Positions 355 to 1,845 of a DNA stretch of 2,285 nt are shown here, in pieces. The first letter of the stretch is position 1. Every line of letters starts with the position of its first letter. The DNA comes from Escherichia phage ECO95 1-6-1: the sequence record OR845503.1. The stretch is one strand, 5' to 3'. The position numbers and the translations under genes are program-made. A model generated the notes under the pieces. That model made no database searches. It worked only from the letters and a program-made list of their open reading frames with translations, and was not told the origin of the DNA.

Positions 355-1845
355 AAGCATAAAGAAAAGATGGCCAGCGGTCAGAACTCCGGGCAGGCAG
401 ATGCGCGGGACAGCAATTATGACGAACCCCGCCGCAAACGGAAATACAAGAAAAACGATATTTCCTCGCTGACGCAGGAGGATTTTGACGCCTGGGCTGA
501 TGAACACCTGTTTGAATACCAGAAACACCTGCGCCGGAATATTGGCCAGCTGGTCAGAAACATCCTCAAAAGCCGCCAGATAGGTGCGACCTGGTATTTT
601 GCATTTGAAGCCTTTGAAAACGCGGTCATGACAGGCGATCCGCAAATCTTCCTGTCTGCCTCCAAAGTCCAGGCGGAATACTTCCGGTCTTACATCGTAA
701 ATATTGCTGAACAGTATTTCGGGATCACGCTGACCGGCAACCCCATCCGCTTGTCCAACGGCGCGGAGCTGCGCTTCCTGTCCACCAACAAGAACACCGC
801 CCAGTCCTACAGCGGCCACCTGTACTGTGATGAATATTTCTGGGTTCCAAATTTCACAAAACTTAATGAAGTGGCCAGTGCAATGGCCACACATGACAAG
901 TGGCGTACCACCTACTTTTCAACACCGTCAGCTAAAACTCACCAGGCGTACCCGTTCTGGACAGGCGATGAATGGAAACAGGGCAGTAAAAAACGTACTG
1001 CCATTAAGTTTCCGACCTTTGATGAATTGCGCGACGGCGGGCGGGTTTGTCCGGATGGCCAGTGGCGCTACGTCATTACTATGGAGGATGCTATTGCGGG
1101 CGGCTTCAATCTGGCCAACATCGAGAAGCTGCGCAACCGCTACAACACAGCCACTTTCAACATGCTCTATATGTGCGTGTTCGTGGACAGTAAAGATTCC
1201 GTTTTCAGCTTTTCCGACCTGGAAGCCTGCGGCGTGGAAGTGGATACCTGGCAGGATCATAACCCGGATGCCGCCCGGCCATTTGGTGACAGGCCAGTAT
1301 GGGGCGGCTTTGATCCGGCTCGCAGCGGGGATTTGTCCTGTTTTGTGATTGTGGCGCCGCCGATGTTCGCCGTGGAGAAATTCCGCGTTCTGAAGGTGAT
1401 TTACTGGAAAGGAATGAACTTCCGGTACCAGGCAAAGCAGATCGAGCAGCTGTTTAAAAAATACAACTTCACCTATCTGGGCGTGGACGTTACCGGTATT
1501 GGCCAGGGCGTTTTTGACAACATTCAGCATTTTGCCATGCGTGTGGCCGTCGCCATTCGTTACGACCTGAACACAAAAAATCAGCTGGTACTGAAGGCGG
1601 CTGACGTGGTCGAAAGTCAGCGAATTGAATGGGACAAAAACCTGAAAGAGATCCCGGCCAGCTTTATGTCCGTACGCCGCACAACCACGCAAAGCGGTAA
1701 CGCCATGACCTTTGTTGCAGACCGCAGCCAGGACACAGGACACGCCGAAGCGTTCTGGGCGATAACCCACGCTCTGCATAACGAACCTCTGAACTATGAA
1801 AATAAACCTAAATCACGCTGGAATTTAAGGAACAAGGCAGCATGA
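70..1845 (+). CDS. terL: Phage terminase large (ATPase/nuclease) subunit, P2 gpP-like; complete
   Basis: Single uninterrupted 591-aa ORF, ATG at 70, TGA at 1843-1845. N-terminal HTH-like region (LYLRRYTPKEIASELNLPNARIVYYW) typical of gpP-type terminase N-termini. Deviant P-loop KSRQIGAT (aa 167-174) and Walker B HLYCDEYFW (aa 250-258) about 85 residues apart, as in terminase ATPases. C-terminal RNase-H-like nuclease signatures GGFDPARSGD (aa 412-421) and YLGVDVTGIGQGVFD (aa 469-483). Length matches the ~590-aa P2 gpP class. An in-frame TAA at 1-3 and no alternative start upstream make ATG 70 the first possible start. Confidence 0.85.
   Translation: MAKYSEELKGVVRALYLRRYTPKEIASELNLPNARIVYYWAEKYSWADLLSFESTEEAIERRYQLLASRDNKTDLDLKEMDMLIAHATKLRAQSNKHKEKMASGQNSGQADARDSNYDEPRRKRKYKKNDISSLTQEDFDAWADEHLFEYQKHLRRNIGQLVRNILKSRQIGATWYFAFEAFENAVMTGDPQIFLSASKVQAEYFRSYIVNIAEQYFGITLTGNPIRLSNGAELRFLSTNKNTAQSYSGHLYCDEYFWVPNFTKLNEVASAMATHDKWRTTYFSTPSAKTHQAYPFWTGDEWKQGSKKRTAIKFPTFDELRDGGRVCPDGQWRYVITMEDAIAGGFNLANIEKLRNRYNTATFNMLYMCVFVDSKDSVFSFSDLEACGVEVDTWQDHNPDAARPFGDRPVWGGFDPARSGDLSCFVIVAPPMFAVEKFRVLKVIYWKGMNFRYQAKQIEQLFKKYNFTYLGVDVTGIGQGVFDNIQHFAMRVAVAIRYDLNTKNQLVLKAADVVESQRIEWDKNLKEIPASFMSVRRTTTQSGNAMTFVADRSQDTGHAEAFWAITHALHNEPLNYENKPKSRWNLRNKAA
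568..591 (+). other. Deviant Walker A / P-loop of terminase ATPase (KSRQIGAT)
   Basis: Codons aaa agc cgc cag ata ggt gcg acc read directly at 568-591. Pattern K-S-x-Q-x-G-x-T with Lys at the motif start and Ala where canonical GK[ST] has Lys, comparable to the deviant lambda gpA-type P-loop (KSARVGYS) and T4 gp17 SRQLGKT. Confidence 0.55.
817..843 (+). other. Walker B motif of terminase ATPase (HLYCDEYFW, catalytic D254-E255)
   Basis: Hydrophobic strand followed by Asp-Glu at 829-834 (gat gaa), about 85 residues after the P-loop. A possible motif III/C-motif TYFSTPS follows at aa 281-287. Confidence 0.6.
1282..1842 (+). other. Terminase C-terminal RNase-H-like nuclease domain (approximately aa 405-591)
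   Basis: Acidic-residue motifs typical of terminase nuclease domains: GGFDPARSGD (D415 at 1312-1314), YLGVDVTGIGQGVFD (D473 at 1486-1488), FVADRSQDTGHAEAF (aa 548-562). Boundaries are approximate. Confidence 0.5.
1827..1837 (+). promoter_or_regulatory. Shine-Dalgarno region for the portal gene, embedded in the 3' end of the terminase gene
   Basis: AAGGAA at 1827-1832, about 10 nt upstream of ATG 1842, followed by a second AAGG at 1834-1837; purine-rich and complementary to the 16S anti-SD. Confidence 0.5.

Follow-up and report, generated by a model that had tools for sequence, protein, structure and literature searches.

A Walker A loop with an N-terminal lysine in the P2-type large terminase subunit of Escherichia phage ECO95 1-6-1

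A known curiosity among viral packaging motors is the terminase P-loop without a canonical lysine; which residue neutralises the phosphates of ATP matters for models coupling hydrolysis to DNA translocation. One such loop is found in gpA of phage lambda, in which the sequence VVKSARVGYSK contains the Walker A K76-SARVGYS83; delToro et al. reportedly observed in 2016 that the K76A and K76R variants were both translocation-dead. The lambda Walker A has been given as KSA-R79-VGYS (PMC6379665, Table 1) and its loop as K-XXXX-GY-S, in which the lysine that binds phosphate stands at the N-terminus of the loop (PMC13595956). The description of this 'deviant' terminase Walker A of lambda gpA is credited to Mitchell & Rao 2004. 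The K-x4-G-x-[ST] arrangement has been a described class for two decades, and the loop that we describe here is an ordinary and already known feature of this kind. It belongs to the large terminase subunit (TerL) of Escherichia phage ECO95 1-6-1, and was analysed in a stretch of 2,285 nucleotides from sequence record OR845503.1 (the window). Bases 568-591 of the window, AAAAGCCGCCAGATAGGTGCGACC, encode KSRQIGAT, residues 167-174 of TerL; all window features given below are on the + strand.

The gpP protein of phage P2 (NP_046758) and other Peduoviridae TerLs share with the TerL of the window the same layout of a helix-turn-helix (HTH) domain, Terminase_6N and Terminase_6C, a length of 590-591 aa and a TerL-portal operon. 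KSRQIGAT recurs unchanged and in matching surroundings in P2 gpP, DILKSRQIGATFYF; the sequence ILKSRQIGATxYF is common to both proteins, and the difference between them is one of sequence divergence alone. A pattern scan of the whole 591-aa TerL found neither GK[ST] nor [AG]xxxxGK[ST], showing that the protein departs from the classical GK[ST] Walker A at the level of the motif, its family membership being unaffected. What TerL does carry is the N-terminal-lysine Walker A pattern, in which position 1 is Lys, position 6 is Gly, position 8 is Ser or Thr and position 7 is not Lys. The expression K....G.[ST] occurs exactly once in the protein, but 20% of shuffles of TerL contain it at least once, so the bare pattern is not significant alone. 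Because of this weakness, homology, structure and conservation had to decide whether KSRQIGAT is the P-loop.

Homology was assessed at several levels. The Pfam Terminase_6N family (PF03237) matched aa 164-385 of TerL (E 2.4e-52, profile positions 1-214 of 215), a match that spans the ATPase domain, as in T4-type terminase ATPases, and that starts in the strand bearing KSRQIGAT. A profile of the family built from 76 diverse relatives of TerL (A3) was searched against the PDB and matched T4 gp17 (3ezk, E 1e-5). In this alignment ilKsRqiGaT is placed opposite CNLSRQLGKT, GdlyiDEvfWipnf opposite AMIYIDECAFIPNF (T4 D255-E256), YQ opposite Y142-Q143 and STPS opposite TTTP. HHalign comparison of the family profile with T4 gp17 gave a probability of 92% and, across 384 columns, an E value of 6e-7; its register was that of the A3 alignment. 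By both the hidden Markov model (HMM) and HHalign, K167 pairs with L160 of T4 gp17, R169 with R162, G172 with G165, A173 with K166 and T174 with T167. This agrees with the original prediction, made from the letters of the window, that Ala occupies the position of the canonical lysine and that a Lys stands at the start of the motif; its numbering of K167, A173 and LSASK (195-199) was likewise right. The diversity of the profile was decisive, as a direct phmmer search of PDB sequences with the TerL protein returned no match and a narrow two-clade profile (A2) gave just marginal, irrelevant PDB matches for the ATPase domain, A3 being needed to reach T4 gp17.

The same dependence was seen in structure prediction. 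With 41 sequences from two clades, the AlphaFold2 (AF2) model had a mean predicted local distance difference test (pLDDT) score of 60, falling below 50 at residues 157-173 and 238-375, and was discarded. The run that was used, with an alignment of 107 sequences at 26-96% identity, reached a mean pLDDT of 91.3 and predicted a strand at 162-167, a loop at 168-172 and a helix at 173-188, with pLDDT values of 97-98 there. The top PDB folds for this model were TerLs, led by that of T4 (3cpe, E 6.5e-16) and followed by those of HK97, D6E and Sf6; the ATPase domain of P74-26 was matched with a TM score of 0.68. The Walker A or P-loop K167-S-R169-Q-I-G172-A173-T174 (568-591), delimited by sequence, T4 gp17 alignment and conservation, thus joins beta strand 1 (VRNILK, aa 162-167, 553-570; DSSP strand 162-167, pLDDT about 97), of which K167 is the last residue, to helix alpha 1 (aa 173-188, 586-633; pLDDT about 98), which begins at A173.

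The remaining motifs of the ATPase were located in the same way. The Q motif, Y150-Q151 (517-522), is found 16 residues N-terminal to the P-loop and aligns with Y142-Q143 of T4 gp17, which we take to be the adenine-binding motif; Q151 is at least 90% conserved. The Walker B strand H250-L-Y-C-D254 and the catalytic E255 (817-834) align with T4 MIYID255-E256, correspond to the AF2 strand 250-254, and are conserved at D254 and at E255 in 122 of 123 relatives each. The C (coupling) motif S284-T285-P286-S287 (919-930), at the end of strand 280-284, aligns with TTTP in T4, with S284 kept in 117/124 and T285 in 110/124 relatives. According to the alignments and the AF2 model, Q motif, Walker A, Walker B-Glu and C motif follow one another in canonical order and spacing within a parallel-sheet, strand-loop-helix fold. 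As the start of the Pfam match, the alignment to T4 gp17, the modelled element and conservation agree, sequence comparison and structure prediction identify KSRQIGAT as the true Walker A of a T4-type additional-strand catalytic-glutamate (ASCE) packaging ATPase with all its other catalytic motifs intact.

Conservation was measured in 150 listed representatives obtained by clustering at 50% identity, of which 117 cover the motif, at 26-61% identity. Position 1 (K167) is Lys in 115 of these 117, position 3 (R169) is Arg in 115, and position 6 (G172) is Gly in all 117. Position 8 (T174) is Thr in 105 and Ser in 12, and position 7 (A173) is variable and hydrophobic (A 64, F 21, L 12, M 8, G 3, others). 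Nearer to the window, KSRQIGAT does not vary among 30 close relatives or among 41 sequences across the ESSI-2-like and P2-like clades, and it is kept in hundreds of phage and prophage copies. The conservation of the position 1 lysine, in 115/117 representatives and in all 41 closer relatives, fits the expectation for a catalytic residue. The motif characterises Peduoviridae-type terminases as a family and is not peculiar to the ECO95 phage.

How the loop relates to those of lambda and T4 depends on which of its features are compared. The original prediction had called it lambda-like rather than T4-like, and this proved right for the arrangement of the lysine, which is that of lambda KSARVGYS (Lys1, Gly6, a hydroxyl residue at position 8 and a non-Lys residue at position 7), but not for the remainder, which is T4-like in its SRQxG.T core, its Arg at position 3 and its Terminase_6N membership. 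T4 gp17, with S161-RQLGKT167, belongs to the same Pfam family and fold as the window TerL, is identical to it at 5/8 loop positions, and has equivalent Q, Walker B-Glu and C motifs and an Arg at position 3; it differs at position 7, which is Lys (K166) in T4 and Ala in the window TerL, and at position 1, which is Leu (L160) in T4 and Lys in the window TerL. Lambda gpA is composed of Pfam GpA_ATPase/GpA_nuclease, whereas the window TerL is Terminase_6N/6C. Its P-loop arginine is at position 4 (R79) and not, as in T4 and the window TerL (R169), at position 3; its position 7 is Tyr instead of Ala, and the residue after the motif is K84 instead of Trp. No GpA family matched the window TerL at E <= 0.01 in Pfam, while lambda gpA itself hit GpA_ATPase (PF05876) at 2.2e-50, and HHalign comparison of the gpP-family profile with the single lambda gpA sequence gave a probability of 0.4% and no meaningful alignment. 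The likeness to lambda is thus drawn from the motif pattern and the literature, not from homology. By these comparisons the window loop is T4-like in everything but the lysine. As the gpP family is T4-type and not gpA-type, the relocation probably had an origin separate from that in lambda; the resemblance to lambda lies in mechanism and pattern, and probably reflects convergence, not descent.

The name 'deviant Walker A' is also used for the KGGxxGK[ST] motif of ParA, MinD and NifH, which has in common with the window loop only this name and an N-terminal lysine. GK[ST] is retained in ParA/MinD/NifH proteins, where the signature lysine works across the dimer interface. As the canonical lysine is absent from TerL, assignment to the ParA/MinD type was rejected. 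The TerL of HK97 (Pfam TerL_ATPase) differs in another manner, its Walker A region R56-K57-N-G-K60-T having kept the canonical K60 and having its extra lysine at position 4, not 1.

Among the 117 representatives, the sole case of Lys at position 7 is P0358, in which the loop reads ASRKTGKT, with Ala at position 1. A dedicated search for relatives of P0358 yielded P0391 (ASRKTGKT) and P0393 (ASRRTGKT), and the contig of P0392 gives ASRQTGKT after the open reading frame (ORF) is extended to an upstream GTG. These four sequences form an A1/K7 clade with 73-80% mutual identity. The clade, which includes the ORF at L006 7857-9158 (+ strand), consists of gpP-like TerLs with the P-loop A-SR[K/R/Q]T-GKT, and the genes sit in a P2-like head module, with the portal gene downstream and, divergently, genes for the Peptidase_S49 scaffold, Phage_cap_P2, Phage_term_smal, gpL and gpR. 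Across the family, Lys is present at position 1 or at position 7 and never at both (115 sequences with K1 and a non-K7 residue, and one A1/K7 clade); both lysines are missing solely in P0386, a 256-aa fragment that is also without the arginine. Such mutual exclusivity would be expected if both lysines share one job. In a neighbour-joining tree rooted on T4 gp17, which carries no support values and has a very long root branch, the A1/K7 clade is nested among K1 lineages; this nesting leads to the suggestion that the A1/K7 state would be a reversion.

The TerL of this clade also appears to be split. In L006, a 154-aa ORF with an HTH (Terminase_5-like; 7076-7540, + strand) is followed by a 90-aa ORF (7537-7809, + strand) and by the ATPase-nuclease ORF without N-terminal domain (7857-9158). 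In P0393, the N-terminus of the ATPase protein carries a segment like the 90-aa ORF.

We consider it very probable that KSRQIGAT is a genuine phosphate-binding loop in which K167, at position 1, replaces the canonical lysine, and that this is the family-wide state of P2 gpP-like terminases, following the lambda-type 'deviant' pattern. The canonical lysine preceding the Ser/Thr has given way to a small or hydrophobic residue, here A173, and a near-invariant lysine, K167, is found instead at position 1, at the end of strand 1. In the mechanism that we propose, the side chain of K167 would enter the anion hole from the other end of the loop than a canonical lysine does and neutralise the beta and gamma phosphates, T174 would bind Mg2+, and E255 would activate water. 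R169 would act as the cis P-loop arginine, the counterpart of T4 R162, which together with P74-26 R39 and Sf6 R24 is one of the 'arginine toggle' residues (PMC6379665; PMC5727402). The original prediction had put K167 forward as a candidate phosphate contact, and the near-invariance of the residue and the mutual exclusivity of K1 and K7 lend indirect backing to that proposal.

Several points weigh against such a role for K167. Its proposed contact with ATP is deduced indirectly, from K1/K7 mutual exclusivity and conservation, and the exclusivity signal comes from one clade and so from one evolutionary event. A solved terminase structure with an N-terminal-lysine P-loop was not found, PDB sequence searches with TerL and lambda gpA giving no match, and the table of TerL structures in PMC13595956 holds just canonical-lysine proteins. 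In HK97 TerL, moreover, an extra basic residue of the Walker A, K57, located upstream of the retained K60, is essential otherwise than as a substitute for the canonical lysine (PMC9410871). These points lend some weight to an alternative that we hold to be unlikely, in which KSRQIGAT is indeed the P-loop but R169 in cis, a basic residue of the neighbouring subunit in trans (e.g. K/R199) or a bound cation supplies the phosphate charge, K167 being kept for some other purpose such as ring assembly, DNA grip or loop stability. That K57 is essential beside a canonical K60 in HK97, and that no classical arginine finger was found there, indicates that charge supply varies among terminases (PMC9410871); the basic residue at position 199 is conserved and has no role assigned to it, and an N-terminal-lysine loop is lacking both from the PDB matches and from the published table. 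What this alternative has to contend with is that Lys1 and Lys7 are mutually exclusive, the sole K7 clade having lost K1, and that in lambda the phosphate-binding role has been assigned to the N-terminal lysine (PMC13595956).

It is far less probable still that the nucleotide-binding loop lies elsewhere, with KSRQIGAT outside the active site. The segment LSASKVQAEY (aa 195-204) had been named in the original prediction as a place where the real P-loop might be found, and its beginning, LSASK (aa 195-199, 652-666), is well conserved (S196 110/120, A197 106/120, S198 105/120) and has a lysine with no canonical alternative after it. Yet LSASK has no glycine and forms, in the AF2 model, a 3-residue turn between strand 192-195 (strand 2) and helix 199-217 (helix 2), and in either alignment with T4 gp17 it falls beyond the Walker A helix. 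KSRQIGAT, for its part, is in a strand-loop-helix element and matches T4 SRQLGKT at 5/8 positions, in a TerL without any GK[ST]. LSASK was therefore rejected as the P-loop, alignment and model both favouring KSRQIGAT. The least probable reading, to which we attach hardly any credence, sees a degenerate loop here and, in TerL, an enzyme from a defective prophage that is inactive or in decay. A missing canonical lysine is a frequent hallmark of pseudo-ATPases, and P0314 and P0386, two fragmentary relatives, have damaged motifs. Against this, the viable phage P2 has the same octapeptide and hundreds of phage and prophage copies keep it; Walker B, catalytic Glu, Q and C motifs and the nuclease domain are intact, and the ORF is full length with an overlapping portal gene. 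A pseudo-ATPase was accordingly set aside as a candidate.

K199 (664-666) stands at the start of helix 2, after the conserved LSAS turn; in 97 of 120 diverse relatives this position is basic, either Lys or Arg. One may speculate that it is a candidate trans-acting finger or DNA contact.

For the ECO95 window alone, the significance of the N-terminal lysine is small, since a well-known phage family normally has this motif, and the exact window sequence is already in GenBank. Among open-access full texts, no paper discussing KSRQIGAT or the Walker A motif of gpP in P2 was found. Two points are left: a lysine has been relocated in a T4-type and not a lambda-type terminase, and a natural clade with the reciprocal swap exists. 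We offer a broader reading of them only tentatively. The lysine may have moved from position 7 to position 1 independently in the T4-type gpP and the lambda gpA lineages, and the move may be reversible; the A1/K7 clade might then represent a natural 'K167A + A173K' experiment, with the two positions interchangeable, and P2-type TerL (pLDDT 91) might be tractable for a first structure of this kind. Together with the high-confidence model, the swap clade would make P2-type TerL convenient for structural or mutational proof of an N-terminal-lysine loop.

The other domains of TerL flank the ATPase. The TerL ORF (70-1845, 591 aa) is the sole long ORF of the window and encodes a P2 gpP-type large terminase subunit, with matches to Pfam Terminase_5, Terminase_6N and Terminase_6C and to PHROG terminase large subunit families. 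The N-terminal HTH domain (Terminase_5, aa 13-63, 106-258; Pfam E 1.4e-10) has weak profile matches to HTH proteins in the PDB and corresponds to AF2 helices at 6-67. Next come a long helix and a disordered, basic linker (aa ~106-135, 385-474), for which AF2 pLDDT is below 50 at aa 108-119. The linker, which separates the HTH and long-helix part from the ATPase domain, reads …PRRKRKYKKND…, and K128-N129-D130 are invariant among close relatives. The RNase H-like nuclease domain (Terminase_6C, aa 412-571, 1303-1782; Pfam E 5.6e-29) has a profile match to the nuclease domains of G20c/P74-26 TerL (E 7e-9), with fold matches up to a TM score of 0.79.

The window is 100% identical in nucleotide sequence to the P2-like Salmonella phage S.Kent 1-2-1 (OR850877.1), 88% to the ESSI-2-like Escherichia phages ESSI2_ev040/ev015 and 81% to Cronobacter phage ESSI-2, and belongs to the ESSI-2-like branch of P2-type phages. 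At the protein level, TerL is ~41-43% identical to gpP of P2-like phages, including Wphi and L-413C. A second ORF begins at 1842 and continues past the end of the window; it is the 5' part of a P2 gpQ-type portal gene (1842-2285), as indicated by PHROG portal family phrog_68 (E 3e-33) and by the portal annotation in ESSI-2-like phages. From the domain matches, the portal match, the phage relatives and the identity to gpP, the window is the P-then-Q (TerL-portal) operon of a P2-type phage, P2 itself having the same gene order, TerL then portal. A scan of the window for promoters and terminators gave nothing exceeding shuffle expectation. At 1842-1845 the sequence ATGA combines the ATG of the portal gene with the overlapping stop codon of TerL, which suggests translational coupling of the two genes. 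In phage P2, the P and Q genes likewise overlap, by one base.

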